NCBI GenBank assembly: GCA_020429915.1
Contig: JAGQKV010000016.1
Span: forward strand, 69,137-133,136
Origin: Candidatus Omnitrophota bacterium
GTDB lineage: Bacteria > Omnitrophota > Gorgyraeia > Zapsychrales > Zapsychraceae
Length of the DNA stretch: 64,000 nt
Direction of reading: 5' to 3'
Shown piece by piece: positions 21,028 through 53,409 of the stretch. Each line of letters begins with the position of its first letter. The first letter of the stretch is position 1. The notes under the pieces were generated by a model. It ran no database searches, was not told the origin of the DNA, and saw nothing but the letters and a program-made list of their open reading frames with translations. A program made the translations under genes and the position numbers.

Positions 21028-21224
21028 AGCCGCCTTTTTCTTCCTTTCAAAGAGCCTTGACCACGCCTCACCGCACAGATTTATTTTCCGGCGAAGCAAA
21101 GAGCGGCTCCGGCGTTTTCAGCCGGGCGCGCCATTACGTAGTTTTACATATTGTTACGAATATCACCGGCTGATAAGATACTTTGATAAAGTAAGTGGAC
21201 CATCTTCACGGGGGGAATCGAATT

Positions 21225-22667
21225 ATGGCAAAATCCATTCTTGGCGTCGTTCTCATTGGAATTCCGCTGATGAGTACGGCTGTTTACGCACAGTCCGGCC
21301 TGCCGACTGAAATCAGTTCGCAAACCAAAGATTGTCTGACCTGTCATCAGGACCAGACGCCTGTCATCTATGAGCAATGGGGGACCAGCAAACACTTTCG
21401 TGCGAATGTGGGATGTTATGAGTGCCACATGGCCAACGAAGGGGAGCCCGATGCGTTTGATCATTACGGCCAGTTGATCTCCGTCATTGTGTCGCCGACC
21501 GATTGCGCGCGGTGCCATGCCAAGGAGGTAAAGGAGTTTAATGCGTCGCATCACTCCAAGGGCGGGCGGATCATCGGGTCGCTGGATAACCGGTTGGCGG
21601 AAGTCGTCGAAGGAAATCGCGCCATGATGACACCGGGTTTCCCGGAAGGGAACTCCGCTGCGGCGGTCATGGGCTGTTGGCAATGCCACGGTTCCGTGGT
21701 TAAGGTGTTGGAGGACGGGTCGTTGGATCCGGCCACCTGGCCGAATACCGGTATCGGCCGGATCAATCCCGACGGATCCGAAGGTTCCTGTTCGGCCTGT
21801 CACGCCCGCCACGAGTTTTCCGTGGTGCAGGCGCGCGCTCCGGAGAATTGCGGCCGTTGCCATATGGGACCGGACCACCCGCAGAAGGAAATTTACGAAG
21901 AATCCAAACACGGGATCGCCTTTTATTCCCATCGCGAAAAGATGAATCTCGACAATGAGAAATGGATTCTCGGCGAAGATTACAGCGCAGCGCCCACCTG
22001 CGCCACTTGCCATATGAGCGCTACCACCGACCAGCCGGTCACGCACGACGTGGGATTGCGCATCAGCTGGAATAACCGTCCGGTCACTTCGATCCGTCCG
22101 GAGGTGTCGGATGCCAAACTCGGCCTGCCGGGTAAGGATATTCCATGGGACACCCGTCGCGAAAATATGAAGAACGTGTGTCTGCACTGCCATAATCAGA
22201 ATTACGTCGATAACTTTTATGTGCAGTACGACGCCCTTATCGAACTGTACAACAACAAGTTCGCCGTTCCCGGCCGGGACCTGATGGCGTTGGCCAAGCC
22301 GCTGCTGAAGCCCAGCGTGTTCTCAAATAAACTCGATTTTATCTGGTTTGAGATTTGGCATCACGAAGGACGGCGCGCGCGGCACGGTGCGTCCATGATG
22401 GGGCCTGACTACACGCATTGGCACGGCACGTATGAAGTGGCCAAACGGTTTTATACCGAGTTGATTCCTGAACTGGAGGAATTGGCCGAGAAGTATATGG
22501 CCGATGAGGATCCGCAAAAGGCCGAGCAGGCGCAGAAGCTGATGCACAAGATCGAGGAAGTCCTGAATTCCACCGATCACAAGTGGTATCTTGACAAGAT
22601 GGATCCTGAGGAGAAGACCCGCCGTCAGCAGGCCGCGGAGGAATTCAAGAAGCAGTACCAACCGTAA
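21225..22667 (+). CDS. Octaheme c-type cytochrome, hydroxylamine-oxidoreductase (HAO/epsilon-Hao)-like
   Basis: Signal peptide. Eight CxxCH motifs (CLTCH, CYECH, CARCH, CWQCH, CSACH, CGRCH, CATCH, CLHCH). The spacing and long helical C-terminus resemble the HAO family. Confidence 0.75.
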   Translation: MAKSILGVVLIGIPLMSTAVYAQSGLPTEISSQTKDCLTCHQDQTPVIYEQWGTSKHFRANVGCYECHMANEGEPDAFDHYGQLISVIVSPTDCARCHAKEVKEFNASHHSKGGRIIGSLDNRLAEVVEGNRAMMTPGFPEGNSAAAVMGCWQCHGSVVKVLEDGSLDPATWPNTGIGRINPDGSEGSCSACHARHEFSVVQARAPENCGRCHMGPDHPQKEIYEESKHGIAFYSHREKMNLDNEKWILGEDYSAAPTCATCHMSATTDQPVTHDVGLRISWNNRPVTSIRPEVSDAKLGLPGKDIPWDTRRENMKNVCLHCHNQNYVDNFYVQYDALIELYNNKFAVPGRDLMALAKPLLKPSVFSNKLDFIWFEIWHHEGRRARHGASMMGPDYTHWHGTYEVAKRFYTELIPELEELAEKYMADEDPQKAEQAQKLMHKIEEVLNSTDHKWYLDKMDPEEKTRRQQAAEEFKKQYQP

Positions 22668-22847: not shown

Positions 22848-23510
22848 ATGAAAAACGAACCCCTCATCAAGAAAACACTCCGCACTCTCCGCCGGGCGGT
22901 GAACCAGTCCGGGTTGGATGAAAAGGACGCGGGCTCCGATCCGATCGCGTTGTTCGAAAAGTGGATCGTCACGGCGGTGGAGAAGGAGGCGTTCGAACCC
23001 AACGCGATGGTGCTGGCCACCGCGTCGCCGGACGGTCATCCCACCGCGCGCACCGTTTTGCTCAAGGACTACGGACCGGACGGTTTTGTTTTTTTTACCA
23101 ACTATGCCAGTCGCAAGGGAGAGCAGTTGACCGCCAATCCGCGCGCGGGCCTTGTGTTTTACTGGGGGATCCTGATGCGCCAGGTGCTTATTGACGGGAG
23201 CATAACCAGGACCGACCGGAAAACTTCCGAAGAGTACTTTCATTCCCGCCCGCGCGGCAGCCGGCTGGCCGCGCTCGTTTCCGCCCAGAGCCGTCCCGTC
23301 GCTAATCGCGCCGAACTCGAGCAGTTGCTTAAAGACGCTGAAGAGAAGTACAAGGACAGCGAAGTCCCGTGTCCGGAAGGTTGGGGAGGATATGTCCTGA
23401 ATCCCACACGCATCGAATTCTGGCAGGGCCGGGCGGATCGAATGCATGACCGCTTGTGCTATACGCGCGTTTCTGACGGAAACTGGAAACTTGAGCGCCT
23501 GGCGCCCTGA
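22848..23510 (+). CDS. pdxH: Pyridoxamine 5'-phosphate oxidase
   Basis: MVLATASPDGHPTARTVLLKDY..GFVFFTNYASRKG and C-terminal WGGYVLNPTRIEFWQGRADRMHDR. Confidence 0.85.
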   Translation: MKNEPLIKKTLRTLRRAVNQSGLDEKDAGSDPIALFEKWIVTAVEKEAFEPNAMVLATASPDGHPTARTVLLKDYGPDGFVFFTNYASRKGEQLTANPRAGLVFYWGILMRQVLIDGSITRTDRKTSEEYFHSRPRGSRLAALVSAQSRPVANRAELEQLLKDAEEKYKDSEVPCPEGWGGYVLNPTRIEFWQGRADRMHDRLCYTRVSDGNWKLERLAP

Positions 23511-23846
23511 TAGTGATTGGGGATTTGAATCAAGAGTGTGTATTTGAATCCATCTTGCGGAAATCGTATTCACCTATTTGGCCTCTTACTATCCAAATCA
23601 AACCGAACTTCTGCTCGGTGTAATCAATGTCTCCTGGCCGTAAACTGTTCTAATCCCAAATCACTAATCCCACCTTGCACCTCCCCGCATCCTGATGACA
23701 ACTTGTTTACAACAATTTACATCCCCATGACAACTCCCCCCGCGGATTGTGCGAAACTTTTAGCGGTTGATTTGATTCCGCGGTCCGCAGTTCTTTCCCA
23801 GGGTCGTTGATATAGACAAACATTTAATTTCATCAGGAGACATGTT

Positions 23847-25235
23847 ATGTCCAATAAAAGTGTATTGTTTGTATCGATATTCAGCATCTCGCTGGTGCTG
23901 GCCCTGATCGGTTTCACCGCGTGCCCTTCCCTTTACGGTCATCAGATTTTTCCTCAATACGGTCGCGGATCCTACGGCGACCACGGTTCCATATCCTTTT
24001 ATCATGAATTCGATCACCCGGTCGTTCTCACGGACCGGCCCAACCGCGTTGTGCTGCGCGTCGGGGCAAAAGCGCCCCTGGCCAGCGCAAGTTGGGAACG
24101 GCTGCCGTTAAACCTGGCGATCGTACTCGACCAGTCCGGCTCAATGCGCAGCCAGGACAAGATACAGAACGCCAAACGGGGGGCGATCGACATGATCCGC
24201 CAGCTTAATAAAGATGATGTCGTGTCCTTGATCGTTTTTTCCACTTCGGCAGAGATCATGATCCCGGCCCAGCATTTGACGGACAAGTCCAAATTCATCC
24301 GCGCCATCCGCAGTATTCGTGCCGACGGTTCCACGGCGTTGTATGACGGGCTGGAATGCGCCTTGCGGGAACTGAAGCGGCATGCGTCGTCCGGTTATCT
24401 CAACCGTATCGTGTTGTTGTCCGATGGGCTGGCGAACATCGGTCCGCAGGACAATAATGTCTTCCTCCGGTTGGGCAGCCGCAATATGGAAGAGGGAATC
24501 CATGTCTCGGCGATCGGCCTGGGGCTGGATTTTAATTCCGAGTTGCTGACCGGGTTGGCCGAGAACAGCGGGGGGAATTATTATTACGCCCGGCACGGCC
24601 ATCAATTGCCCGATATTTTCAACCGGGAGATCAACCGCAGCATAACGATACTGGCCCAGGATGTCCGCATTCGCGTCCATACCATCAACGGCAGCCGCAC
24701 CGGCGGGGTCATCGGGCCTGCCAATGTCGTGGACACCCAGACGGCGGAGACCTGGATCCCGTTTATGTATGCCGGCGACGACAAATACCGGCTCGTCGAG
24801 ATCGATCTGCCTGTACTCGACCGTGAAAAAGAGTTCACGGTCGCCCGGTTGGATATCCAGTATTACGATCCGTTTGCGGGACAGACCAAGTATGTGCACG
24901 AGTTGTTGTCCGTGGACGGCAGCAACGATGACCGCTTGGTCGAGCGGCAAACCAACAGGGACGTGATCAAGGACAGTTACCTCAGGCGGATGGCCGTGCA
25001 AAAGGAAGAAGCGGTCCGCTACGCCCGGTCCGGGGACTACCGGGGGGCCGCGCGCGTGATGATCAATACCAGTGTGGAGCTGCAGAACGCGGCCGATCAA
25101 TACAATGATCCGGAGCTGCGGCGGGCCTCGCAACAAAACCGCCGGAGTTACCGCCAGATCATGGATGAAGGCGAGGTCTCCCTGGAGCTGATGAATTCGG
25201 AGATCATGAATATTAATCAGGAGTTTTGGGGGTGA
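23847..25235 (+). CDS. von Willebrand factor A domain protein (YfbK-like: N-terminal TM, VWA with MIDAS, C-terminal helical domain)
   Basis: DQSGSM (DxSxS MIDAS), GSTALYDGL, VLLSDGLAN. Confidence 0.8.
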   Translation: MSNKSVLFVSIFSISLVLALIGFTACPSLYGHQIFPQYGRGSYGDHGSISFYHEFDHPVVLTDRPNRVVLRVGAKAPLASASWERLPLNLAIVLDQSGSMRSQDKIQNAKRGAIDMIRQLNKDDVVSLIVFSTSAEIMIPAQHLTDKSKFIRAIRSIRADGSTALYDGLECALRELKRHASSGYLNRIVLLSDGLANIGPQDNNVFLRLGSRNMEEGIHVSAIGLGLDFNSELLTGLAENSGGNYYYARHGHQLPDIFNREINRSITILAQDVRIRVHTINGSRTGGVIGPANVVDTQTAETWIPFMYAGDDKYRLVEIDLPVLDREKEFTVARLDIQYYDPFAGQTKYVHELLSVDGSNDDRLVERQTNRDVIKDSYLRRMAVQKEEAVRYARSGDYRGAARVMINTSVELQNAADQYNDPELRRASQQNRRSYRQIMDEGEVSLELMNSEIMNINQEFWG

Positions 25236-25272
25236 TACAGTGATGAGTGATGGGTGATGAGTGATGATGGTA
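25236..25272 (+). repeat. Tandem octamer array GTGATGAG TGATGGG TGATGAG TGATGATGG directly 3' of the vWA gene stop
   Basis: Read directly. A variant of the GTGATAAG family. Confidence 0.45.
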
Positions 25273-25601
25273 TTCGACGCGGCGGGATATTCGCCCAGCT
25301 GCCACAGCCCCTTGCTGACATCACTCAGCACGCACCACTCATTATTTTTCAGTTATCCCGAAGCACCCACCCCCGCCGGGATATCCCGGCCGGAGAGGCT
25401 CCGCTGGCGTTAACTCTCCGGTCGGTCCCCGGCGGCCCTTTAGTATTTGATATTACAGGAATACTATGATATCTTAAAAGTGTCCTGCGGGACGAACATT
25501 CCCCAATCCTACCGAATTTTACCCGACTTTAGTTGCAGCATTTTGTCCTTCCGGGCTGTTTTGTGTCCCGGAATTTATCGGTTTTAAAGGTGTAACCATC
25601 T

Positions 25602-28600
25602 ATGTCTATTAGGCTTACAAGAAAGAGTCCGACTGTCCGGCCGCTGGTCGCGATGCTGCTGATCGCCCTGCTCGGGGGGCTGATCACGCCGCCCGCCGTG
25701 CGGGCGGAGACGGTCCTCGACCTGCCCGAACCCGGCAGTCTGGTGACGCTCAGCGCGCCTTACGCGCCGGCACAACTGATGGGCATCAACGTCGACCCGC
25801 ATCGGCCGCTGGCCTTCGATTTCATCATTGATCAGGGCGACGACCGGCTGGAAGGGGACCATCTGCAGCAAGAAGGGGCGCGGCTGGTGAAGTACTTTTT
25901 GGCCTCACTGACCGTTCCGGAGGACGAGATGTGGGTCAATCTTTCTCCGTACGAGGAGAACCGCATTATTCCTGCGGATTTCGGCCGTACGCAAATGGGC
26001 CGCGATCTGCTCGCCCTGGACTACATGCTCAAGCAATTGTCCTCGACTCTGATGCATCCGGACGACCGTCTGGGCAGCGACTTCTGGCAGCGCGTCTACC
26101 AAAAGGCGCAGGAGCGTTTCGGCACCACCGACATCCCGGTCAATACCTTCAATAAAATCTGGATCGTTCCCGAACAGGCGACCGTTTACGAACATCCCGG
26201 CGGCGCGTTTATCGTGGACAGTCATCTGAAAGTCATGCTCGAAGAAGATTACCTGGCGTTGCAGGCCAATCAGGACAGCACCAAGCACGGCTTGGGGGAT
26301 ATGACCGTCGATAAAGTCGAGGTGATCAGCGGGGTTTCCGGGGAGATCGTGCGTTCGGTCCTGCTGCCGGAAATCGAACGGGAGGTCAACTCCGGCCGGA
26401 CCTTTGCCAAATTGCGGCAGATCTATCATGCCATGTTGCTGGCGTCCTGGTACAAGAAACGGTTGAAGGAGAGTTTTCTGGGTCAGATTTACGTCGACAA
26501 AAAACGCGTGGAAGGAATCGACATCCGTGACCGGGAAATCAACCACAAAATATACGAACAGTACGTCGCGTCTTTCAAGAAAGGCGTGTTCAACCTGATC
26601 AAAGAAGACACCGATCCGGAGACGCATGAGGTAATTCCGCGCAAGTATTTCTCCGGCGGGGTGGAACTCAACGGCGACCAGGCCACGCTGTCCGCCGTCG
26701 ACACGGCCGGTGACGCCGCGCTGCGCGAACACGTCCGGTCGGCGGCACGGCGCCTGCAGGCGGGACTGCGAATGACCGTCGGATTGAACGAAGCCGGTCC
26801 GCAACGCAGCGACCGCGCCATGCTCAGCCACGATCAGGCCGTGGTCGAGGGTGTCGCCCAACGGGTTGCCCGGGAAGAGACGGATGAATCTTCGGAGGCG
26901 TTCCGGCAGTGGTACGACGAAATCCTGGGGGCCTTTCGACTACGCTTCGGCATGATCAGCGGATATCTTGAGGGAGACGACGCGCACAGTCTGGAAGCCT
27001 ATCTGCAATTCAACCGTAACGATGTGATCAATTTATTCGATGCCCGCAATCTCCTCAAGAAAACGGACGACTCCGGACGGCCCACCCTGCTGGAGCTGGG
27101 GTCCGGCGACACCCGGGTGGCCTTGGCGATCGCGCAGCGCAATCCCGGCATGGACGTCATCGCCACCGACGTCTGGCAGACCGACCCCAAGGATTCCCTG
27201 CGCCAATATGTCGTCGATGCACGGGCCTTTGAAGACGGACTGCTCCCCGCCCAGACAACGCCATTGTCCAACCTCGCGGCGGTCCGCGCGCAGGCCGATC
27301 TTATCGGTCACCTGCCCGACGGATCGCTTGACTATATTCTCTTGGTGAACCCCTCCCGCGGGGCGATATACGATCTGGTGGTGATGGCCCGGGAATTCGG
27401 TTTGGCCGACAAACTGCGGCCCGGGGGTCAAATCATAATGAAGGCCACGAATGCCGTGGAACCGTTTTTCAATCTCATGAACGACAGTTTTCACTTTTTG
27501 GCCGTCGACGACTTTGAATTTCTCGGTGTGGATTTGCATGCCGAGTCCGCGTGGCAGGAAGATTTCCTGAAAGGCAACGTCTACGTTGGTTCCCGGCTGG
27601 AAGATATGCTCGGTGAGTTGTATCAACTGGATGTCCCGCGACAAAAGATCGGCGATAATGCCGTTCTGGCGATGGTGGCGGATATGGCCACACGTTACCA
27701 CATGGAGTCCAACATGGTGGAAAGCATTATCGCCAATAATCTGGACGTCGATATATTTGTCGGCGGTCTCATTACGGAAATTAAACGCCGGAATCCCGCC
27801 AGCGAGATGACACCGGAGGCTATGCAAAAATATCTGCGTCGACGCGGTTATCTGATCGCGGGTATTCTCGACCAGCAGGTGGTGTCCGAAGCGTTTAACA
27901 TGATCGAGGAGCCGGTCAATCCCGAGGATGATCCATGGGTGTATGCCATCGATGGGGATGCCTATCAGACGATTTTGCGGGGGGCGCTCAATACCGGAAG
28001 CATGGCCCGTCAGCTGGCGCGGATGCGCGGCGTGGCGCGAAAGCTTTGGGACCTGCGCACGGGTGTCGGTATGTACATGAAGTCCGCCGGACCTCACACG
28101 CGGAAGTATCTTGATGAAATGAACGCTGCCGACCGCCAACGGGTGGCGGAAATTCAGCAGATCTATGGCGTCTCTGAAAGCGTGGCCGTGGCCCGTCTGC
28201 TGAATCAGAAGGATGTCGACGAACGGCAGCGGGTAGCGATACGCTCGATGGAACACACGGCAAGCGCCGCGGTGGATCCGTTCGGAAAACTGTCCGTCCT
28301 GGCGACCTGGTTTGCCACGGCAGCCATGGTCGGCGATTTCGACACGACGGTTCGTGCGGAATTTCAGGGGCTTCACCGGGACCTGCAACAGCTGAACCTC
28401 GCGCTGCGGGCCTTTGCCTCGCAGGATCCCATGCAGCCCGATTTCCGTTACACCCGGATTTATGATTTCGAGGCGCGCTGGCAAAGTCTGGAGCGGACCA
28501 TTCGTGATTATATGGGGCTCATTCGGGAAGTGGCCCAACGTCCGACGACCCAATTGGAAGACAGTGAGCACATGGTGGACAGGATGAGCGAGCTCATCGA

Positions 28601-30974
28601 AGGGATCGGCAACGATTTCGCATCGCAAATGGCCTTCGCTCTGGGGGACGTCGAATATAATCGCCAACGGACCGACATTGCCGACACCGTCCGGGCCGTG
28701 GTCCGGCGTTTGTCCGAAGACCGGGGCTTCCGGGACAATTATGTCAGGATCGATGTGACACCCGCTGCGGAAGGGATGACCGTTAATGTCAATCCCGGCT
28801 GGCTGTCGCTGATTGTCAGCAATTTCGTCAACAATGCCCACGATGAGATTTACAAGCAAGTCGTTACCGGCGACCGTACCGATTTCGCGGACGGCGACAT
28901 CCGCATCACCCTGGATTATCTTCCCCGGACTGGTAGAGCGATATTGCGTGTGCACGACAAGGCGCGCGGTATCGATCCTGAGTCGCCGATACTCGAGAAG
29001 AAGTTCGGCCGGCCGAAGATCTACCGGCTGGGCGGTACGATCGGCAAATCTGCGGCGACCGGCAGCGGCACCGGTGTGGGCTTGGCTGAGGTGTATCACA
29101 TCGCCCGGATGATGGATTGGGAGCTGGCGCTGAATCCGCAAAAGAAATTCAACGGCGGTGATGCCATGGGAGCGGAATTTACGGTGACCATACCGGATGT
29201 GACGGCCAAGTCCGATAACGCGGTCTTGACCAATGTCCGGACCGTGGCCCGTCAATTTGAAATGGACGAAGGGGTGGTCCAAGGGATTATGGCTTCCAAT
29301 ATCCCTGTCGACAGACTGGTCCGCGAGTTGCTCAAGACAATTCGGCGGCGTAATGCCCTGACGCAACTTGATGAGCCGGCGATTCTCCGTCAATTAACGG
29401 AGAAGGGATTGGTCCGGGACGATCTACTGTCCAAAGATTTTCTCAATGGGAATTTGGTGCTGACCGAACCGGATGTGGTCGAGGGCCTTGAGGCCGACCG
29501 GTATGCCGTCTCCGATGCCGAATTGGATGACATCGTCACGGATACGCTGACCATGGAATCATTCGCGATGCAGGTCATCCGGATGCGGGCCGTGGCGCAG
29601 GACAAGGACCGGGTCGCTTCCATAACGGAAACGGACCTCGCGGACATCGGCGCACACCTGGAGGAATATTTATCTCAACTGAACGCACAGGAACGCGGGC
29701 AGGTCGACTTCCTCACCAATGACGAGGGCCTGAGCCGTACCGAGGCGGTGGCCTGGGTGTTGGGCGAGAAGATGATCGAAGAGCGCCGGCGGGTGGCGGT
29801 GCAGTCTATGCATCATAGTGCCAGCGCGGCGGTGGACCCGTTTGAAAAGCTTGGTTCGCTCGGCGGCCTGTTCGGTTTGGCGGCGACTCTGAGCGATTAC
29901 GGAGAAGCGGATAAGGAACGTTTCCGGGCCATGAGCAATACCATCGATCAATTCAAGGCGCGGTTGGGGGCCTTTGCCCGCGATGCCTCCGAACCGCAGT
30001 TTAATTATCAGCGCATCTATGCCCTGGAAAGCATCTGGCGCAAATTGCTGGGACCCTTAAGCGAATTCGTCGGACTATTCCGCGGACAAGCGGCACGGTT
30101 TGACACCGACAGTGTGACCAATAAGTTTATCGCCGATCAGACGGTGAGTTTGATTCAAGGGATCAACGCTGACTTGCAGGGGCAGATCGCCTTCGCCCAA
30201 GGCAATCTCACCTTCAACCGGGACCGGATCAATTTGGCCGCGACGATCAAATCCGCCGCGGAGGAGCTATCCCTTAAACGCGGTTATCCGAAGGACCTCA
30301 TTTCTATCGAAATATCCTCTGATGCGCAGACAGCGGAATTGGATATCAATCCCGTTTGGGTTTCTTTGATCGTTACCAATTTGATCAAGAATGCCTATGA
30401 CGAATTGAGCAAACAGGTGGCAACGGGGACCCGAGCCGGTCTTCGTTCCGGAGAAATCCGGGTGTCATTAAATTACTTTGAACGCGCCAATCAATTGGAG
30501 CTGGCCGTCCATGATGCCGCCGGCGGGATCGCCGCGGACTCTCCGCTGTTGGCGCAGCGACTCGGGCGGGAGCGTATCTTTGAGCTGGGCCAGACAGCCG
30601 GTAAGGAGCGCGGTACGGGTGTCGGGCTGGCCGAGGTCTACCATATTTCCCGGCTGATGAGATGGCCGCTGGAACTGACTCCCCGGGCCGTCATGCCCAA
30701 TTCCGACGCCTTCGGCGCGCGCTTCGTTTTGACCATTCCCTATAAACCGGGGGAGGCCGACAGCGCCGTCCTGGCCGACCGGCAAGACGAGGTCGGGGGG
30801 ATCGACATGAACCCGGCGCTGGCCGATATCCGTTTCACCGCGGCGGACGGTGCCGCGCCGGCGTCCCTTGTCCGGCTGCCGCCGGCGCTCGACATCGAGG
30901 TGGAGGGATTTGTGCCGGTGATCCTCAACGCGGTCCCCATCCGCAACATCCCCCTGCTGCTGGGTCTGGATTAG
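25602..30974 (+). CDS. Giant (1790-aa) multidomain protein: signal/TM anchor, ~450-aa unknown region, Rossmann class-I-MTase-like domain, then an internally duplicated ~520-aa module ending in a degenerate histidine-kinase-type GHKL ATPase (N, G1, G2 boxes)
   Basis: LLELGSGDTRVALAIA..DVIATDV and YILLVNPS (MTase-like). Two GHKL copies: IVSNFVNNAHDE..HDKARGID..GTGVGLAEVYHI and IVTNLIKNAYDE..HDAAGGIA..GTGVGLAEVYHI. Confidence 0.8.
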   Translation: MSIRLTRKSPTVRPLVAMLLIALLGGLITPPAVRAETVLDLPEPGSLVTLSAPYAPAQLMGINVDPHRPLAFDFIIDQGDDRLEGDHLQQEGARLVKYFLASLTVPEDEMWVNLSPYEENRIIPADFGRTQMGRDLLALDYMLKQLSSTLMHPDDRLGSDFWQRVYQKAQERFGTTDIPVNTFNKIWIVPEQATVYEHPGGAFIVDSHLKVMLEEDYLALQANQDSTKHGLGDMTVDKVEVISGVSGEIVRSVLLPEIEREVNSGRTFAKLRQIYHAMLLASWYKKRLKESFLGQIYVDKKRVEGIDIRDREINHKIYEQYVASFKKGVFNLIKEDTDPETHEVIPRKYFSGGVELNGDQATLSAVDTAGDAALREHVRSAARRLQAGLRMTVGLNEAGPQRSDRAMLSHDQAVVEGVAQRVAREETDESSEAFRQWYDEILGAFRLRFGMISGYLEGDDAHSLEAYLQFNRNDVINLFDARNLLKKTDDSGRPTLLELGSGDTRVALAIAQRNPGMDVIATDVWQTDPKDSLRQYVVDARAFEDGLLPAQTTPLSNLAAVRAQADLIGHLPDGSLDYILLVNPSRGAIYDLVVMAREFGLADKLRPGGQIIMKATNAVEPFFNLMNDSFHFLAVDDFEFLGVDLHAESAWQEDFLKGNVYVGSRLEDMLGELYQLDVPRQKIGDNAVLAMVADMATRYHMESNMVESIIANNLDVDIFVGGLITEIKRRNPASEMTPEAMQKYLRRRGYLIAGILDQQVVSEAFNMIEEPVNPEDDPWVYAIDGDAYQTILRGALNTGSMARQLARMRGVARKLWDLRTGVGMYMKSAGPHTRKYLDEMNAADRQRVAEIQQIYGVSESVAVARLLNQKDVDERQRVAIRSMEHTASAAVDPFGKLSVLATWFATAAMVGDFDTTVRAEFQGLHRDLQQLNLALRAFASQDPMQPDFRYTRIYDFEARWQSLERTIRDYMGLIREVAQRPTTQLEDSEHMVDRMSELIEGIGNDFASQMAFALGDVEYNRQRTDIADTVRAVVRRLSEDRGFRDNYVRIDVTPAAEGMTVNVNPGWLSLIVSNFVNNAHDEIYKQVVTGDRTDFADGDIRITLDYLPRTGRAILRVHDKARGIDPESPILEKKFGRPKIYRLGGTIGKSAATGSGTGVGLAEVYHIARMMDWELALNPQKKFNGGDAMGAEFTVTIPDVTAKSDNAVLTNVRTVARQFEMDEGVVQGIMASNIPVDRLVRELLKTIRRRNALTQLDEPAILRQLTEKGLVRDDLLSKDFLNGNLVLTEPDVVEGLEADRYAVSDAELDDIVTDTLTMESFAMQVIRMRAVAQDKDRVASITETDLADIGAHLEEYLSQLNAQERGQVDFLTNDEGLSRTEAVAWVLGEKMIEERRRVAVQSMHHSASAAVDPFEKLGSLGGLFGLAATLSDYGEADKERFRAMSNTIDQFKARLGAFARDASEPQFNYQRIYALESIWRKLLGPLSEFVGLFRGQAARFDTDSVTNKFIADQTVSLIQGINADLQGQIAFAQGNLTFNRDRINLAATIKSAAEELSLKRGYPKDLISIEISSDAQTAELDINPVWVSLIVTNLIKNAYDELSKQVATGTRAGLRSGEIRVSLNYFERANQLELAVHDAAGGIAADSPLLAQRLGRERIFELGQTAGKERGTGVGLAEVYHISRLMRWPLELTPRAVMPNSDAFGARFVLTIPYKPGEADSAVLADRQDEVGGIDMNPALADIRFTAADGAAPASLVRLPPALDIEVEGFVPVILNAVPIRNIPLLLGLD
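27690..30800 (+). repeat. Intragenic tandem duplication (2 x ~1555 nt) inside the giant ORF
   Basis: Paired segments: SIIANNLDVD../GIMASNIPVD.., RVAIRSMEHTASAAVDPFGKL/RVAVQSMHHSASAAVDPFEKL, and the two GHKL domains. The constant offset between paired segments is 1553-1560 nt. Confidence 0.7.
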
Positions 30975-31098
30975 CCCGGCCGCGTTCCCGCATTCTCCTC
31001 ATCACAATATCTTGATCTGTGCCAATCTGTGTTAGAATGAGTTTACTCGCGAATCAGTCTCAACGTCAACGCACCCCCCACCCGTAGGACGGATAGCC

Positions 31099-31986
31099 AT
31101 GACCAAGAAGACCTCATCGAAGAAGAAACCGGCCAAGAAGAAAAAATCCACCGTCAAGAAAGCCGCACGTCACGGTGTCGGTAAACAATCGGCGCGCCCT
31201 GCCCCCAAGCCCAAGCTGGGCAAGAAATATTACGAAGATGAACTGGAACGCTTGCAGGCCGAACTGGTAAAACTTCAGGAATGGATCAGGGACCGGGGGC
31301 TGCGGGTAATTGTTGTGTTTGAAGGGCGGGACGCCGCCGGCAAGGGCGGGGTGATTAAACGCATTCAGGAACGGACCAATCCGCGCGTGGTGCGCGTGGC
31401 CGCCCTGGGCACTCCCACCGAAAAAGAAAAGACGCAATGGTATTTTCAACGCTACGTGGAGCATCTGCCGGCCGGCGGGGAAATGGTCCTGTTCGACCGC
31501 AGCTGGTACAATCGCGCCGGGGTGGAGCGCGTGATGGGGTTTTGCACGGAGGAACAATATTGGGAGTTCCTGCGGTCCTGTCCCGAGTTTGAGGGGATGC
31601 TGCAGCGCGCCGGGATCATCCTGATCAAGTATTGGTTTTCCGTCAGCGACGAGGTGCAGGAGAAACGGTTTCAGGAGCGCATGACCGATCCGCGCAAATA
31701 CTGGAAGCTGAGCCCCATGGATCTGAAGTCGCGCGAGAAATGGTTCGAATACTCCAAAGCCAAGGACGTGATGTTCCAGTACACCGATACCAAGGATTCC
31801 CCGTGGTACGTGGTCAATGCCGACGACAAGCGCCGGGCGCGGCTGAATTGCATTACGCATCTGTTGTCGATGATCGAATATGAGGACCTCTCGCCGAAAC
31901 CGCGCAAACTGCCGCCGCGGCCGAAGAAATCCAAGTACGTCCGTCCGCCGCTGCATGAGCAGAATTTTATTGCGGAGGTGTATTGA
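31099..31986 (+). CDS. ppk2: Polyphosphate kinase 2 (PPK2) with a ~40-aa lysine-rich N-terminal tail
   Basis: FEGRDAAGKGG (Walker A), WYFQRY, FDRSWYNRAGVERV. The N-terminus is MTKKTSSKKKPAKKKKSTVKKAARHG. Confidence 0.85.
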   Translation: MTKKTSSKKKPAKKKKSTVKKAARHGVGKQSARPAPKPKLGKKYYEDELERLQAELVKLQEWIRDRGLRVIVVFEGRDAAGKGGVIKRIQERTNPRVVRVAALGTPTEKEKTQWYFQRYVEHLPAGGEMVLFDRSWYNRAGVERVMGFCTEEQYWEFLRSCPEFEGMLQRAGIILIKYWFSVSDEVQEKRFQERMTDPRKYWKLSPMDLKSREKWFEYSKAKDVMFQYTDTKDSPWYVVNADDKRRARLNCITHLLSMIEYEDLSPKPRKLPPRPKKSKYVRPPLHEQNFIAEVY

Positions 31987-32024
31987 TCAGTGGTAAGGGA
32001 TAAGTGATAGGGGATAAGAGATCG
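31987..32024 (+). repeat. Tandem octamer array TCAGTGGTAAGGGATAAGTGATAGGGGATAAGAGATCG directly 3' of the ppk2 stop
   Basis: Read directly. It shares the GATAAGAGAT(C/T) end with the 42726 copy. Confidence 0.45.
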
Positions 32025-32055
32025 ACCCGTTGGGTCCGGTCTCAAGGAGGGAACG

Positions 32056-32520
32056 GTGATTAACATTCGAAAGATTTTGACGCCGATCGATATCGATCCG
32101 GATCCGAAAAACGAGTTACATATCGATATGCCCAATGTGGCGGCGCTGAAATACGGCTGTGAGTTTGCCGGTCGTTTCGGGGCGGAGCTGCATATCCTCC
32201 ACGTTGTCGAGGACATCACCGAGCTGGAAGATTGCACGCATGAAGCCGAGCGCGAGGAGGCAGGGGTCCTGCACAAGCTGAAAATCGTACCGCCCGCCGG
32301 CGGGGGCAAGGTGGTCCGGGCAATCCGCAAAGGTCGGCCGTTTGTCGAGATCATTGCCTACGCGCGCGAGCAGGCCGTCGATCTGATCATTATGGGGACC
32401 CACGGCCGGACGTCCCTGCCGCATTTACTGATCGGCAGCGAAACTGAAAATACCGTCCGCAAGGCCCCGTGCCCGGTGCTGGTTGTCCGCCATCCCGAGC
32501 ATGAATTCGTGTTGCCGTGA
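32056..32520 (+). CDS. Universal stress protein (UspA family)
   Basis: LHILHVVED, IIMGTHGRTSLPHLLIGSETENTVRKAPCPVLVV. GTG start after the RBS aaggaggg. Confidence 0.8.
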   Translation: MINIRKILTPIDIDPDPKNELHIDMPNVAALKYGCEFAGRFGAELHILHVVEDITELEDCTHEAEREEAGVLHKLKIVPPAGGGKVVRAIRKGRPFVEIIAYAREQAVDLIIMGTHGRTSLPHLLIGSETENTVRKAPCPVLVVRHPEHEFVLP

Positions 32521-32562
32521 AGTCCGGCGAGATAATCGAAACCCGATCATCAAAGGGATAAA

Positions 32563-33144
32563 ATGATACGTATATTCGGAAGCCTGTTATGCTGGTTCAT
32601 GCCCGACAAAATTATGGAGGAAGTGGTCTCCGATGACCGGCTGCCTGTGGATATGGGTTCCAACTTCATCGCCACAGCGCTGGTAAGTTTTGGTGGCTGG
32701 CGTCTGGTCGCTACGCTCAAAGGGCTGCCTCAAGGCGATGGGAACCTGATCGGCGAGCTACTCATTGGGCCGTTGGGACCATTCATCGCCAATATGGTAA
32801 TCGTCGCGATTTTTACCTGGGCGATGGGGCAGGCTCTAAGCAGCAATAACGTCAGGGCGGGCGGCAAACCGGTGCAGCCGGAATTCGGAGAACTCTTCCC
32901 GGCGCACCTGCACGCATGGGCCGTGATGATGATGCTGATTTTTCTGGGCGCGGTCACCCGCCTGCCTCTGTTGCTGGTGTTAATGGCGGTGGCGGTCGTC
33001 CGGACGGCGGATATCGAGGCCCGCCTGATGCGCAACCTGTATGCGATTTCATTACAAGAGGCCTATAAGATCGTCCTGTTTGTCTTCGGCGTTATGACCG
33101 TGGGAATCGCCGTCGCCGCCGTCTTTATTAAAATCACCGGATAG
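32563..33144 (+). CDS. Hypothetical polytopic membrane protein
   Basis: 193 aa with about 5 hydrophobic segments. Confidence 0.4.
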   Translation: MIRIFGSLLCWFMPDKIMEEVVSDDRLPVDMGSNFIATALVSFGGWRLVATLKGLPQGDGNLIGELLIGPLGPFIANMVIVAIFTWAMGQALSSNNVRAGGKPVQPEFGELFPAHLHAWAVMMMLIFLGAVTRLPLLLVLMAVAVVRTADIEARLMRNLYAISLQEAYKIVLFVFGVMTVGIAVAAVFIKITG

Positions 33145-33175
33145 TTAAACCCCGGAACTGTCCCCCGAAAAGGCA

Positions 33176-33640
33176 ATGTGTATGCATCAAATCCGTTTGG
33201 TATCATTCGGCAGGATTCTGGCCGGTCTGGTTTGTCTCGTGATGATTGTGGCGGCCGGATGCTCGGGGCAGCCTGCGGTGGAAGACCTGTCCGTTCATTA
33301 CGAGCATGTCCCGTGCGAGGATCCGCTCGAATTGTACGGTTGCAAACCCACGATGATCCACGCGATCGATCAGCGCGACCTCGAGTGGGTGAAACGTTTG
33401 GTGGAAGAGGAGGGGGTGGACGTCAACATCGGCTACCCGTATTATTACGGCGTTACCGCACTGATGGCGGCGGTCCAACGGAACTATGAAGAGGCGGCGC
33501 TGTACCTTATCGAACAAGGCGCGGACGTGAATGAGGTGATCCCGCTCGATCCCCTCACGGAAGCGGAGCAGAACGGAATGACGCGCACGGCCGAAGCCAT
33601 CCGGCAGCGGCGCGGCAGTTGGCCGGAAGACTCCCGGTAA
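33176..33640 (+). CDS. Ankyrin-repeat lipoprotein
   Basis: Lipobox VAAGCSG. Two ANK repeats (TMIHAIDQRDLEWVKRLVEEEGVDVN; TALMAAVQRNYEEAALYLIEQGADVNE). Confidence 0.55.
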   Translation: MCMHQIRLVSFGRILAGLVCLVMIVAAGCSGQPAVEDLSVHYEHVPCEDPLELYGCKPTMIHAIDQRDLEWVKRLVEEEGVDVNIGYPYYYGVTALMAAVQRNYEEAALYLIEQGADVNEVIPLDPLTEAEQNGMTRTAEAIRQRRGSWPEDSR

Positions 33641-43368: not shown

Positions 43369-45069
43369 ATGCCTATTTCCATCCGCCGTATCGGAAAGAT
43401 CGAAAAGACCTACCAGCATTTCAAACGCTTCGAAGAAATCATTTATATCGTATTCAAGTACGGCCTGCAGGACGCCATTCGCGGTTTCGATCTGCCCGGT
43501 CCGCTGAAGGCCTTAAGTGAGCGCGTCTGGGACAAAAAGGTGCGTGCCCTGCACAAAGAGCCGTTTGCCAAGCGCCTGCGACTGGCCTTGATCGAAATGG
43601 GCCCCACCTTCGTCAAGTTCGGCCAGATTATGTCGATGCGTGTGGAATTCTTTTCATCCGATATTATCGAGGAGCTGACTCAACTTCAGGACGCGGTCCC
43701 CGCGTTTCCCTTTGAGGAGGTGGAGAAGACCGTTACCGCCGAACTGGGCGGCATGCTTCACAAAAATTTTCCCCAGTTCGAGGAAGAACCCATCGGTTCG
43801 GCTTCACTCGGGCAGGTTCACCGTGCCCGGCTGCCCGACGGACGGCGGGTGGTCGTCAAAGTCCAGCGGCCCGAAATAAAAGGCCGGATTGAAATCGATC
43901 TGGAGATCATGATGCATCTGGCGGAATGGGCGGAGAATAATATCGAGGAGTTCCAGTACCGCCGGCCGGCCCAGTTCCTGGAAGAATTCGCCTATGCCAT
44001 CGAAAGGGAACTGGATTATAAACAGGAGGAAGCCAATATTCAGAGATTTCAGGAGCTATTCCGGAGCGATCCCGGTGTGCACATCATGGGGTGCTATCCG
44101 GATCTCTCCACCGAACGGGTACTGACCCTGGAAGAGATCGAGGGCGTCAGGGTGCGCGAACTCGGCCGCTTGGAGCAGGAAGGATTTGACCGGCGCGTTC
44201 TCGCCGACCGCGGCGTAGACTGCGTGCTGAGCCAAATCTTTGATCACGGGTTCTTCCACGCCGATCCGCATCCGGGAAATATCTTCGCGACCACCGGAAA
44301 TGTCGTGTCCTTTATTGACTTCGGGATGGTGGGGCGGCTTAACCGGCGGCATCGGGAGCTGATGGCCGATTTTCTGTACGCGGTCAATCAGCGGGATGCG
44401 GGCCGGGCGGTGAAGTATCTGGTGAAGATCACGACGGACGCACGGGAGGCGGACCTTCCGCGGCTGGAGAAGGAGATCGGGGAGCTGATCGACCGCTATG
44501 TCAGCAAGCCGATCAAAGAGGTGTCTTTTGCCGAATTGTTCGCACGGCTCAGCGGTGTCCTGGCCGATCACCACATGACGATACCGGCCGATTTTTCCAT
44601 GATGCTCAAGTCGATTTCGACTCTGGAGGGAGTGGGGCGGTCGCTTGATCCGGATATCAATCTCACCCGTAAACTTGTGCCGTACCTCTACCGGTTGAGG
44701 ATTGCCCGGTTGCGTCCGACGCATGTCGCCGGCGACATCACCGACTCGACGATTCAGTTTGTCGAACTCTTCCAGGATATTCCCGAGAAAGTCCGCGACT
44801 TTCTCCAGCTGTCACTCAAGGGAGAGGCGCAGATCCGCGTAGAGCATCGGCAAAGTGAGTCTTTCAAGATTTTCTGGAATCAACTCACCAACCGTTTGGC
44901 TGTGGCGTTGATTCTTTCGGCTCTGCTCATCGGTTCATCGATTATTGTGCTTTCGGGCCTGCCGCCAAAATGGAACGACATTCCGATCGTCGGGCTGATA
45001 GGTTTTATCTTGGCGGGGCTGATGAGTCTCAGCCTGTTATTTTCCATCTGGCGCAGCGGTAAGTTCTAG
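43369..45069 (+). CDS. ubiB: ABC1/UbiB atypical kinase family protein with C-terminal TM helices
   Basis: GPTFVKFGQIMS, PIGSASLGQVHRA, VVVKVQRP, FFHADPHPGNIF. Confidence 0.85.
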   Translation: MPISIRRIGKIEKTYQHFKRFEEIIYIVFKYGLQDAIRGFDLPGPLKALSERVWDKKVRALHKEPFAKRLRLALIEMGPTFVKFGQIMSMRVEFFSSDIIEELTQLQDAVPAFPFEEVEKTVTAELGGMLHKNFPQFEEEPIGSASLGQVHRARLPDGRRVVVKVQRPEIKGRIEIDLEIMMHLAEWAENNIEEFQYRRPAQFLEEFAYAIERELDYKQEEANIQRFQELFRSDPGVHIMGCYPDLSTERVLTLEEIEGVRVRELGRLEQEGFDRRVLADRGVDCVLSQIFDHGFFHADPHPGNIFATTGNVVSFIDFGMVGRLNRRHRELMADFLYAVNQRDAGRAVKYLVKITTDAREADLPRLEKEIGELIDRYVSKPIKEVSFAELFARLSGVLADHHMTIPADFSMMLKSISTLEGVGRSLDPDINLTRKLVPYLYRLRIARLRPTHVAGDITDSTIQFVELFQDIPEKVRDFLQLSLKGEAQIRVEHRQSESFKIFWNQLTNRLAVALILSALLIGSSIIVLSGLPPKWNDIPIVGLIGFILAGLMSLSLLFSIWRSGKF

Positions 45070-45365: not shown

Positions 45366-45650
45366 GATTAACTCCTTGGGCTAGAGATATTAGGGGGTTG
45401 TGTTCCCTATTATAAATCCGGGACGTCCGTTGTGCAAATGGGGAAAATGCGCAAATCCTCTTAAACTGTTGAAGATAAGCGCCTTATCAGGGATCACTTG
45501 AAGAAAATGGAATTTGCCGCTACAATAGAGCTCTGCCTTTTTGACATCGTCAAAACTTCGCCCGCGAAACGGCAGGGGCCTGACCCTGCCAGTACCAAAC
45601 GATAACAACAGCCAATACCCAGGGATGATATCCCAAAAGGACTGGTATAT

Positions 45651-47649
45651 GCCGACCAAGACAGCCAAGAAAACTTCCCGCCGCAAGTCCGCGACCGTCG
45701 CGGTGTTGCAGCGTGTTGTCATAGAAGATGTTAAGCCCCAGATCGACGGCGGGGCCTTTCCCGTCAAACGTGTGCCCGGAGAATATGTCACCGTCACCGC
45801 CACGGTCTATGCGGACGCCCATGACGACGTTGAGGCGGTATTGCTCGTCCGCCGCCGGAGCGAAACTCAGTGGCGCGAGATTCCGATGCGCAGGGGGATC
45901 AATGACCTGTGGACCGCCGATTTTCTTATCGAGCACCAGGAAGACTATGTATACACGGTGGCGGGCTGGATTGACGAGTTCTCCACCTGGCGCCGCAAAC
46001 TGGTCAAGCTGTGGGAGGCCGGCCAGGATGTGCGGCTGGAGATGAAGGTCGCCGCCCAACTGCTCGACACGGCGGCCGTCAACGTCAACGGTTCGCTGCA
46101 GGATGGACGCTGGCTCAAGAAATGGGCTCGGGATTTTACCCGGGAGGGGGACGTGTTCGCCAGTGCGTACATCGGGATGAGCCGGCCGCTCTTTGATCTG
46201 ATGAAGCGTTTCGGCGAGCGCAAGTCTTACCGCCGCTTCACGCATGAATTGACCGTGCGCGTCGACCGGCAGCGTGCGCTGTACAGCACCTGGTATGAAC
46301 TCTTTCCGCGTTCCTGGAGCCTCACACAGGGACAACACGGTACGTTCAAGGATTGTGAGCGGCTGCTGCCGGAACTCGCGCGAATGGGATTCGATGTGCT
46401 TTACTTTCCGCCGATTCATCCGATCGGTTCCACGCACCGCAAGGGCGGCAACAACAGCCTGACCGCCGGAGTAACGGACCCGGGCAGCCCGTGGGCGGTC
46501 GGCAACACCGACGGCGGCCACAAGGCGATCCACGCGCAATTGGGTACGCTCAAGGACTTCAAGAATCTTATGGCGGCGGCTGCCAAGCACGGCATCGAGA
46601 TAGCCCTCGACATCGCTTTTCAGTGCTCGCCGGACCACCCGTACGTGAAGCAACATCCGCAGTGGTTCAAATGGCGCCCGGACAAGACCATCCAGTACGC
46701 CGAGAATCCGCCGAAGAAGTATGAAGACATCTATCCGATCAACTTTGACAGTGATGATTATCAAAATCTGAAAGAAGAACTGAAGGACGTCTTTGTCTAC
46801 TGGCTTAAGCAGGGGATCCGTATCTTTCGCGTCGACAATCCGCACACCAAACCGTTCCCGTTTTGGGACGAGGTGATCGGCGCGGTCCGGGAAGATTTCC
46901 CCGACGTGATCTTCCTCGCCGAGGCCTTTACCCGGCCGCACGTGATGCAACGGCTGGCCAAAGGCGGCTTCCATCAGTCTTACACGTACTTTACATGGCG
47001 CAATTCCCGGCATGAGTTTCGCGAATACATGCATGAACTCACGCGTACCGAAATGCGGGAATATTTCCGTCCCAATTTCTGGCCCAACACCCCCGACATC
47101 CTGCCGCCGCACCTGCAACACGGCGGACGTCCGGCGTTCATGCAGCGGTTGGTGCTGGCCGCGACGTTGTCCTCGAACTACGGGATCTACGGGCCGGCGT
47201 TTGAACTTTGCCTGTGGGAACCTTTCCCCGGGAAGGAAGAATACGTTCATTCCGAAAAGTACGAACTGAAAGATTGGGATTGGGACGCGCCCTGGAATCT
47301 TAAGGATTTTATCACCCGCATCAACCGGATTCGCCGCGACAACCCGGCTCTGCAGACGACCTGGAACTACGGGCCGTGCGAATCCAGCAATGAGAACCTG
47401 TATTGTTATCACAAGGCCACCGCCGACCGCGGCAACATCCTCTTGATCGTGGTCAACATGGACCCGTATCAAACTCACAGCGGGCAGGTGTGCGTGCCGG
47501 TGGAGGAGTTGGGGATCGGATGGAACCGGCATTACCGTGTTCACGATCTGATCAGTAATGACCGGTACACCTGGTACCGCGACTGGAATTACGTCGAGCT
47601 GGACCCGTTCCGTTGTCCGGCGCATATATTTAAAATCACCTGGGATTGA
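45651..47649 (+). CDS. glgE: Alpha-1,4-glucan:maltose-1-phosphate maltosyltransferase
   Basis: GH13_3 motifs DIYPINFDS and IFRVDNPHTKPFPFW. 666 aa. Confidence 0.85.
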
Positions 47650-47656
47650 GACTGAC

Positions 47657-50980: not shown

Positions 50981-51031
50981 ACACGCGGCGGCAAACGTGG
51001 ACAGATCGCAAGCGTGAAAAGAGGTATTCTC

Positions 51032-53023: not shown

Positions 53024-53051
53024 CCGGACCATTAACAGGTAAGGAGCCAAG

Positions 53052-53390
53052 ATGAAAGAGCAAATCATCGATGTCGCGGGCAAGACATATCAGTTTCTGG
53101 GACAAAACGGGGAGACCGAGATCGGCGCATTATCGCGCGGTTTAAAAGAAGAGAAAGATCTCGTCCTGCAGTCCCTCGGATGGCTGGCACGCGAAGATAA
53201 AATACTTTTCTCCCAACGCAGCAGCAAGACGTTTGTCGCCTTGATGGAGGCTGAACGCGACGCCTTCAGCCGGATCGCTCACGCCATCACCACTGCCGTG
53301 CCGAGGCCGGATGCAAAACCAGCCCCAAAGACCGTTAAGAAGACGGTCCGCAAGGCTGCCCGCAAAATTACCCGCAAGAAGGCCAAGTAA
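53052..53390 (+). CDS. Small winged-helix-like protein with a lysine-rich (histone H1-like) C-terminal tail
   Basis: 112 aa. The C-terminus is PKTVKKTVRKAARKITRKKAK. Confidence 0.45.
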   Translation: MKEQIIDVAGKTYQFLGQNGETEIGALSRGLKEEKDLVLQSLGWLAREDKILFSQRSSKTFVALMEAERDAFSRIAHAITTAVPRPDAKPAPKTVKKTVRKAARKITRKKAK

Positions 53391-53409
53391 GACGAAAAGC
53401 CCGTTGTCT

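Follow-up and report, generated by a model that had tools for sequence, protein, structure and literature searches.

We analysed a stretch of 64,000 nt from a Candidatus Omnitrophota bacterium (assembly GCA_020429915.1, contig JAGQKV010000016.1, positions 69,137–133,136), referred to as the window. It contains the gene for a giant protein of 1790 residues, preceded on the same strand by a gene for a protein with a vWA domain (Table 1). The giant protein carries a leader, a conserved N-terminal domain (N-domain or head), three cargo cassettes, of which one is methyltransferase-like and two are histidine kinase (HK)-like, and a conserved C-terminal tail. Head and tail recur around other cargo in a large set of proteins, which we define here as the bookend family; it is absent from Pfam and NCBIfam. 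The giant open reading frame (ORF) is a genuine gene of this large paralogous family, whose members are built from leader, N-domain, swappable cassettes and C-tail. The mechanism outlined further below is what we infer from this design, and the explanation as a whole is the one that we favour on balance.

Occurrence of the giant ORF and duplication of its modules

The two HK-like modules of the giant protein are related. Residues 685–1204 and 1205–1719 align over 527 residues with 36% identity (E 2e-111), and every catalytic box is intact in both copies. The preliminary description of this DNA had reported a giant protein with two modules of about 520 residues, each ending in a GHKL ATPase, and this was confirmed. 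It had also considered an assembly chimera, and tandem repeats can indeed misassemble. However, 47 index blocks of the assembly collection contain the identical 1790-residue product, which was read on at least 24 contigs assembled independently of one another. These range up to the size class of 0.2–1 Mb, and one contig of 208 kb carries the neighbours found in the window. The orthologue P0002 (61% identity, 99% coverage) has the same two-module layout, and repeats of 36% identity are too diverged to mislead an assembler. This refutes a chimera and leaves virtually no room for a misjoin at the module junction near 29214–29250 or for a decaying pseudogene.

In the comparison of P0002 with the window protein, the first modules are 54% and the second modules 56% identical, whereas the cross-matches between first and second modules reach 41%. 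Because like modules match better than unlike ones, the duplication is older than the split of the two species. The cluster representative P0001, listed as 100% identical to the window protein, differs in at least two residues around aa 1711–1727 (FALTIP...LAGRQ versus FVLTIP...LADRQ); these differences are strain-level variation.

Head, tail and leader of the bookend family

When the whole protein served as the query, more than 3,000 proteins of 1,000–3,100 aa were obtained; their similarity to it (50–65% identity) is limited to its first ~20%. Those with a source name given come from Candidatus Omnitrophica or Omnitrophota. Inspection of 57 homologues revealed a common design of a leader, an N-domain of ~320 aa, variable cargo and a tail of ~60 aa. 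The N-domain begins with LNLPxPG and ends with IPRKYFSGG. Its alignment (A1, 28 sequences) has 69 invariant columns, including WVNLSPYE, NTFNKxWI, MLEEDY and LRQ, and the window sequence, which is row 1 of A1, carries all of them. A profile of the head matched 8,250 of 1.84 billion cluster representatives at E ≤ 1e-3, of which 6,574 also reach E ≤ 1e-30. The match begins near residue 20–60 in all 150 matches listed, in proteins ranging from 420 to 5,312 aa.

Both ends are held in place. Among the 120 best homologues, the motif at the end of the head lies at aa 307–399 in 118, and the tail motif GGI(D/N)x lies 56–135 aa from the C-terminus, also in 118. From 118 aligned tails the consensus GGIDLNPxxLxL...I.GF.PVIINI.P..NLP.LLG was obtained; residues 1731–1790 of the window protein align with the 117 other tails. 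The architecture, which the preliminary description could not assign to any described family, is thus no orphan: its N-domain is common to thousands of cluster representatives, where it is paired with the conserved C-tail and with many other cargos.

The cargo is diverse. Pfam domains of proteins sharing the N-domain include PGI, PGM, UGPase, PGK, enolase, GAPDH, HPr and DnaJ, and further receivers, HEAT repeats, M48, ABC1, acyltransferases and metallophosphatases. A scan with one genome per species gave at least 573 family loci. The 79 that were kept come from metagenome-assembled genomes (MAGs) titled 'Candidatus Omnitrophota/Omnitrophica', 'uncultured Planctomycetales' or unclassified 'bacterium'. 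Several paralogues occur per MAG, for example at least six in OFTM38 and at least five in MAG246. Judged by these relatives alone, the window is almost certainly of Omnitrophota origin. At least two family genes are present in 14 of 81 loci, with 95 family ORFs altogether. At the locus L002 (GCA_030429765.1, JAUIER010000011.1, 1–9901), the family member P0003 is preceded by ORFs of 2323 and 1666 aa, the latter with a Peptidase_S8 domain.

Neither head nor tail matched any Pfam model at E ≤ 10 or any NCBIfam model, and the head profile gave only chance matches among the sequences of the Protein Data Bank (PDB). A structure model of the N-domain (predicted local distance difference test score, pLDDT, 67.7) revealed no fold relatives. 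The tail reached a pLDDT of ~40 in AlphaFold2 (AF2), modelled without a partner. No type IX secretion system (T9SS) C-terminal, PEP-CTERM/LPXTG-type or RTX/type I secretion signal was detected in the tail (Pfam, E ≤ 10), which in the window protein ends with ...IPLLLGLD, without a transmembrane helix or a basic cluster. No description of either domain was found in the literature searched.

The leader of the window protein consists of a positively charged n-region, an h-region of 14 residues and the sequence TPPAVRA|E. The same design, a basic n-region of ~15 residues followed by an uncharged run, usually with PP, is present in 178 of 181 members (median charge of the n-region +3), and 159 of these 178 have an AxA-like site. 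The preliminary description had assigned to the giant protein a membrane anchor followed by a large N-terminal region. The hydrophobic N-terminus is there, but it is signal-peptide-like and is better read as a candidate Sec-type signal peptide, and the large region is the family domain of ~320 aa.

TABLE 1. Features of the vWA gene, the spacer and the giant gene in the window. Positions count from the first nucleotide of the window; aa numbers refer to the respective protein.
Feature	Position	Strand	Details	Basis
vWA/MIDAS protein, 462 aa	23847..25235	+	lipoprotein-type signal aa 1-26; VWA aa 89-259 (nt 24111-24623)	ORF list, translation
~5 tandem GTGATGR heptads	25239..25270	+	right behind the stop codon of the vWA gene	spacer alignment, blastn
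Conserved non-coding block	25444..25532	+	promoter-like TTGATA-17-TATCTT with TG (25447-25475); leader with small hairpin GTCCTGCGGGAC	promoter scan, spacer alignment with L001
Giant ORF, 1790 aa, bookend-family member	25602..30974	+		ORF list, translation, homologue search
Putative Sec-type leader, aa 1-35	25602..25706	+	MSIRLTRKSPTVRP / LVAMLLIALLGGLI / TPPAVRA|E	sequence inspection
Conserved N-domain, aa 36-353	25707..26660	+	LDLPEPG ... WVNLSPYE ... NTFNKIWI ... MLEEDY ... IPRKYFSGG	
Cassette 1, methyltransferase-like, aa 404-684	26811..27653	+	begins DRAML; ELGSGD aa 497-502, ATD, LLVNPS	
Cassette 2, HK-like module 1, aa 685-1204	27654..29213	+	begins DNAVL; His885 nt 28254-28256; HATPase_c aa 1067-1199 (nt 28800-29198)	
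Cassette 3, HK-like module 2, aa 1205-1719	29214..30758	+	begins DNAVL; His1405 nt 29814-29816; GHKL ~aa 1541-1715	
Family C-tail, aa 1720-1790	30759..30971	+	DSAVL, then VGGIDMNPAL...GFVPVILNAVPIRNIPLLLGLD, then stop	alignment of 118 tails

A leader in nearly all members, a conserved head right behind it and a conserved tail might form a two-step secretion or translocation device, through which the variable enzyme cargo would reach the interior of prey or host cells and thereby a supply of ATP. The extreme polymorphism of the cargo and the many paralogues per genome are consistent with this, as is the disorder of the tail when modelled alone, since a recognition signal would behave in this way. 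The vWA lipoprotein encoded next to the giant gene would share the exported side. Furthermore, a predatory or parasitic life as nanobacteria has been inferred for Omnitrophota (PMC10066038). Against this, housekeeping-type enzymes (PGI, PGK, enolase, GAPDH, UGPase) dominate the cargo and would be odd as effectors. The family genes sit among trp, tRNA-synthetase and regulator genes, and clustering of the neighbours over the 81 loci gave no recurrent partner, protease, transporter or secretion gene. We therefore consider secreted effectors unlikely.

The logic of a leader, conserved end domains, swappable cargo and short junction motifs has counterparts in known secreted proteins. TpsA/CdiA proteins have a two-partner secretion (TPS) domain and a VENN junction, MARTX toxins have conserved N- and C-terminal regions and arrays of effectors cut at Leu-small sites, and T9SS cargo combines a signal peptide with a C-terminal domain. 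In contrast to these systems, the bookend proteins carry housekeeping-type rather than toxin cargo and have no cognate transporter or protease gene nearby. Nor was any likeness in sequence or fold to TPS, T9SS C-terminal, MARTX, RTX or CPD domains found.

Junction motifs at the cassette borders

The cassettes are joined by short motifs. In 120 family proteins SSP[VILMA] occurs 189 times, with 12 occurrences expected from shuffling, and D.A[MVL][LMVTIS] 216 times, with 65 expected. Each protein tends toward dominance of one motif type. The D-x-A-M/V-L type, with the logo D-x-A-M(80%)-[LVMT]-[ASGT], prevails in the lineage of the window and SSP[VI] in most other lineages. Within four paralogues, none of the 19 junction motifs falls inside a Pfam enzyme envelope; the motifs flank the enzymes. 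In the window protein, DRAML (aa 404), DNAVL (685 and 1205) and DSAVL (1720) coincide exactly with the borders of the three cassettes (one methyltransferase-like, two kinase-like) and of the tail, and the 520-residue repeat spans from motif to motif. The last junction motif is located 4–28 aa ahead of the C-tail in 61 of 106 proteins.

Some junction Met residues are directly followed by a Tat-, lipobox- or Sec-like signal (13 of 527 pattern matches, 2.5%, versus 0.8% for control internal Met residues). Such internal signals, which begin precisely at the Met of D-x-A-M far within the long ORFs, stand in P0009 (aa 820), P0011 (382), P0014 (383, 1657), P0017 (722), P0015, P0090 and P0184. The one in P0009 is Tat-like, RRNFVIGSGLLAAVAVFGGGVRAYA; the lipobox-like sequences LAGAC and GGGC belong to P0014 and P0017, and P0011 and P0014 have Sec-like leaders. 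This suggests that cassettes were captured as whole genes or, alternatively, that they are released as separate chains. As a third explanation we considered internal translation starts. These were ruled out for the window gene, since its junction codons are ATG, GTT, GTC and GTC and no Shine-Dalgarno-like sequence is found upstream.

Release as separate chains would make the bookend proteins polyproteins. Cuts at D-x-A-M/V-L or SSP[VI] would free the N-domain, a methyltransferase-like protein, two kinase-like proteins and the tail. The strong enrichment of the motifs, their lineage specificity, their place exactly at module borders and shortly before the C-tail, and the excess of free-N-terminus signals behind the junction Met all argue for such processing. 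The motif, a hydrophobic followed by a small residue, also resembles the inter-effector sites of MARTX toxins. Cleavage of giant Omnitrophota proteins was proposed, as a question, by West-Roberts et al. (10.1101/2023.11.21.568195), who stated that cleavage points were lacking. On the other hand, no protease domain was found in the giant protein, and no protease gene recurs beside the family genes. Rather than lying in a disordered linker, the motif is modelled by AF2 as the N-cap and initial turn of its module's first helix. In the window gene, separate chains cannot come from internal starts, three of the four junctions being Val, and the signal peptides inside the family proteins might be left over from genes that were captured. 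Processing at the junctions is possible, though we regard it as doubtful. The same degree of doubt applies to a routing in which only modules with a signal are exported, each on its own, and the others remain cytoplasmic. If polyproteins are nevertheless made, the pieces would be individually routed, some of them via the Sec, Tat or lipoprotein signals behind the junction Met. N-domain and C-tail would then serve as handling machinery, and the window protein would release a methyltransferase-like protein and, as separate chains, two atypical kinases.

If bookend proteins are secreted effectors, the junction motifs could instead be recombination joints for the swapping of cassettes, as VENN is in CdiA; like the effector proposal itself, this has little probability in our view.

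Methyltransferase-like and kinase-like cassettes

The cargo of the window protein consists of one class-I-methyltransferase-like cassette and two anciently duplicated, atypical HK-like cassettes. The preliminary description had noted a Rossmann methyltransferase-like domain with GSGD and VNPS motifs. Both motifs are present (aa 500 and 582, respectively), and E-x-G-x-G, ATD and LLVNPS are invariant in the alignment of the cassette. The matches to known families, however, stay below threshold: Methyltransf_4 and Methyltransf_16 of Pfam score E ~0.06 at aa 486–580, below the gathering score, and a profile of the cassette (A5) reached KsgA, TrmB, CFA synthase and MraW among PDB sequences at E 0.1–0.4. 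The assignment to class-I methyltransferases is therefore no more than plausible.

The methyltransferase-like cassette is found at differing positions in seven members, including P0002, P0005, P0006, P0019, P0044 and P0055. It follows just behind the head in P0005 and P0019 and stands just ahead of the tail in P0006 and P0044. Cassettes thus shuffle between positions.

HATPase_c matches the giant ORF in two stretches (Pfam, E 1.2e-20). The N box (NF/LxxNA), G1 box (VHDxAGGI) and G2 box (GTGVGLAEV) are kept in both modules, as claimed before. We aligned seven such modules from five proteins, which are 26–55% identical. Invariant in all of them are the residues of the three boxes and a single His, which corresponds to H885 in module 1 and H1405 in module 2 and lies within ERxRVAxRSMxH[ST]ASAAVDPF.

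The AF2 model of aa 1205–1790 (pLDDT 82.5; predicted template modelling score 0.71) gives the predicted layout of module 2. In module numbering, it comprises an alpha/beta subdomain (1–111), helices 114–155, 158–171 and 175–200, a conserved loop, helices 209–223 and 231–257, a helical hairpin (267–295/300–329) and the GHKL domain (337–510). The invariant His is located at the end of helix 175–200, ~190 residues ahead of the N box. Profile–profile alignment to a canonical HK (hhalign, 95% probability) reaches no further than the catalytic and ATP-binding (CA) domain and, in the dimerization and histidine phosphotransfer (DHp) domain, the end of helix 2. Because of this coverage, the hairpin 267–329 in front of the CA domain is taken as the equivalent of DHp. 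It has no conserved His; an invariant Phe occupies the place of the H-box His. Searches of Pfam with the helical region and the N-terminal subdomain of the module gave no HisKA, HPt or other match at E ≤ 10. The absence of a canonical H-box/DHp, stated in the preliminary description, is in agreement with these data.

The proposal built on this absence, namely that the modules act as Ser/Thr kinases or scaffolds rather than as sensors, held in part. The lack of an H-box stands, but the invariant H885/H1405 upstream keeps phosphotransfer to His possible. Judging from this conserved residue, a separate helical element might carry the His chemistry, in the manner of CheA; a Ser/Thr-type activity, by analogy with PDK, is possible as well.

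In canonical kinases the His precedes the N box by ~110 residues, as compared with ~190 residues in the window modules. Sensor HKs such as HK853, KdpD and CckA have in common with the modules a GHKL-type CA domain with N, G1 and G2 boxes and a helical hairpin directly before it. They differ in that the modules show no HisKA match and no His in the hairpin and are arranged as tandem kinase units in one chain. The giant protein has no transmembrane sensor, and no receiver domain was detected in it or in the 10 neighbouring ORFs scanned; a partner encoded farther away may exist. Outside the CA domain the modules are dissimilar to CheA-type and mitochondrial PDK/BCKDK kinases and have no P2 or P5 domains. 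A phmmer search with the C-terminal half of the module did not match any PDB sequence.

Among 220 family members, the kinase-like cassette was found only in P0001–P0004 and partly in P0048. A scan of metagenome contigs with the module alignment (A2) returned three ordinary NtrY-like kinases only, with ~25% identity. The cassette would represent a rare variant of the HK core, in which the only conserved His is displaced out of the DHp hairpin.

The vWA gene and the spacer to the giant gene

The presence of a vWA/MIDAS protein upstream of the 1790-residue ORF was confirmed: both ORFs are where they had been described, the VWA domain is matched with E 3e-19 (Pfam), and the metal-ion-dependent adhesion site (MIDAS) DQSGS is intact, starting at aa 95, as judged by inspection of the sequence. 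The N-terminus (...LIGFTAC) resembles a lipoprotein signal. No domain was assigned to the C-terminal 200 aa, roughly the second half of the protein. The label 'YfbK-like' was not upheld. Only generic VWA models match (Pfam and NCBIfam, E ≤ 0.1), the best scores of family-specific NCBIfam models being far under their cut-offs. A VWA domain, an intact MIDAS and an N-terminal membrane or lipid anchor are features common to generic vWA/MIDAS proteins (BatA/BatB-like, YfbK); in contrast to YfbK and Bat proteins, the window protein reaches no specific model at threshold.

The 336 bp upstream of the vWA gene had been called AT-rich and promoter-like. The G+C content is indeed lower (43–48% compared with ~57% locally), but a consensus scan revealed no sigma-70-like site.

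A 58%-identical vWA orthologue is located upstream of the giant orthologue in the locus L001, where the downstream neighbour of the giant gene differs from that in the window. When the vWA protein was searched against the 81 family loci, the L001 orthologue was the sole match, with none in the 80 others. The single-module relatives P0003 and P0004 have no adjoining vWA gene; their shared neighbours are a DEAD-box helicase and an HI0933-like gene. The pairing of vWA and giant genes, which the preliminary description had proposed to look for in other genomes, is thus confined to the orthologous locus. We conclude that it is a lineage-specific synteny and not a defining pairing.

The spacer between the two genes (366 bp) contains a terminator-like hairpin at 25420–25437, followed by a conserved non-coding block (~25444–25532) with a promoter-like site. 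Over 52 nt this block is 92% identical to L001 (alignment, blastn), compared with 58–61% for the flanking proteins; it has no match in Rfam. Since the spacer combines the terminator-like hairpin, the promoter-like site and this conserved block, the giant gene probably has its own promoter, and the vWA and giant genes are probably transcribed separately. The GTGATGR heptads are retained in the orthologous spacer (L001 1534–1567). An imperfect reverse-complement copy of the heptads at 25319–25342, present in the window only, could pair with them.

These observations bear on the reading in the preliminary description, a stand-alone two-gene system of vWA protein and giant kinase in which His-less modules act as Ser/Thr (anti-sigma-like) kinases or as scaffolds. 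In its favour are the missing canonical H-box and the vWA adjacency, which is kept beside the 61%-identical orthologue while the downstream neighbour has changed. Yet the architecture is one instance of the ~8,250-cluster family, the vWA gene is absent beside P0003, P0004 and at the 80 other loci, and an invariant His is present in the modules. A two-gene unit is further weakened by the spacer, with its own conserved promoter-like block and terminator-like hairpin. We consider such a system very unlikely.

Possible mechanism and significance

In the reading that we favour, a bookend family with swappable cargo, the leader would direct the giant chain to the Sec translocon. Head and tail may act as generic targeting, anchoring or assembly devices common to all paralogues, and the cargo cassettes would supply the specific activity of each protein. 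The intact N, G1 and G2 boxes would enable each kinase-like module of the window protein to bind ATP. The module might then phosphorylate its own upstream His, in a split arrangement like that of CheA, or another substrate, as kinases of the PDK/BCKDK type do. The vWA lipoprotein would be a lineage-specific neighbour and a possible partner on the same side of the membrane, not a defining component.

Several points weigh against this picture. The main difficulty is one of topology: were the entire chain exported by its leader, neither the ATP-dependent kinase nor the paralogues' glycolytic and nucleotide-dependent enzymes would have access to ATP. Processing at the junctions or delivery into host or prey cells would each resolve this paradox. 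The apparent lack of a known fold in the N-domain may in part reflect the moderate quality of the model (pLDDT 67.7). The invariance of the His rests on seven modules from five proteins, and this residue sits at a helix end, ~60 residues upstream of the position expected for a DHp His. No receiver or partner was found among the neighbours scanned. Finally, the rarity of the kinase-like module is only partly established, and protein-database searches with module 1 and with A2 returned nothing despite the known positives P0001–P0004, which we take as a limitation of the search and not as absence of the module.

Omnitrophota are widespread, uncultured, ultra-small and probably host-dependent bacteria. 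That unrelated enzymes are strung together in their proteins has already been described in preprints. Methyltransferase domains occur together with HATPase_c domains in Omnitrophota proteins of at least 10,000 aa, where a signal-peptide/transmembrane topology dominates, and the paradox of export leaders on cytoplasmic enzymes has been raised for them, according to the accessible text of 10.64898/2026.06.07.730766. As far as the accessible text of the two studies goes, these long multi-enzyme proteins share with the bookend proteins the phylum, the unrelated cytoplasm-type enzymes in one chain, the N-terminal signal peptides and the question of cleavage. They differ in size (at least 10,000 aa versus 1,790 aa here). 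A conserved N-domain, a C-tail and junction motifs were not found described in the accessible parts of either source (10.1101/2023.11.21.568195 and 10.64898/2026.06.07.730766).

What is newly seen here is a head of ~320 aa without detectable relatives, a tail of ~60 aa and the junction motifs, none of which was found in Pfam, NCBIfam or the literature searched. These bookends and motifs at the level of the family are the most valuable result. With the giant gene, a tractable representative of ordinary size is available for a family that numbers thousands of proteins and accounts for much of the unexplained large-protein content of Omnitrophota. The junction motifs offer concrete candidate cleavage sites which can be checked against existing proteomes. 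One could go further and see in bookended cassettes a phylum-wide format for a substantial part of the enzymes and regulators of Omnitrophota, with the junctions as processing sites and the proteins as bacterial polyproteins; we put this forward very tentatively. The family also sharpens the paradox of export-type leaders on chains rich in ATP- and NAD-dependent cytoplasmic enzymes, and its resolution would inform on basic cell biology in the phylum or on its predatory strategy.

Other genes of the window

Rfam gave no match in the region 23400–31200, and the PADLOC models of defence systems matched neither the vWA protein nor the giant protein. A tblastn search over the window revealed no second member of the bookend family besides the giant ORF. 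Two long antisense ORFs lie inside the two genes, one of 786 aa (27033–29393, minus strand) and one of 396 aa (24141–25331, minus strand); they are taken to be a by-product of the high G+C content and not genes. The flanking genes (21195–22667 and 31099–33640) code for a multihaem cytochrome c, a PNP oxidase, PPK2, a universal stress protein and an ankyrin-repeat protein.

Another long ORF of 1900 aa (58038–63740, plus strand) has a signal-peptide-like N-terminus and ~150 Cys-rich residues at its C-terminus, and did not match Pfam at E ≤ 1e-5. It is outside the bookend family, as tblastn found neither head nor tail. An ABC1 kinase gene is located at 43369–45069. It is followed by an alpha-glucan cluster (45541–57672, plus strand) with a GlgE-like gene, a gene for a TreS–maltokinase-like fusion (1140 aa) and a GlgB-like gene, together with a second gene of the alpha-amylase family with CBM48 and a GH57/DUF3536 gene.

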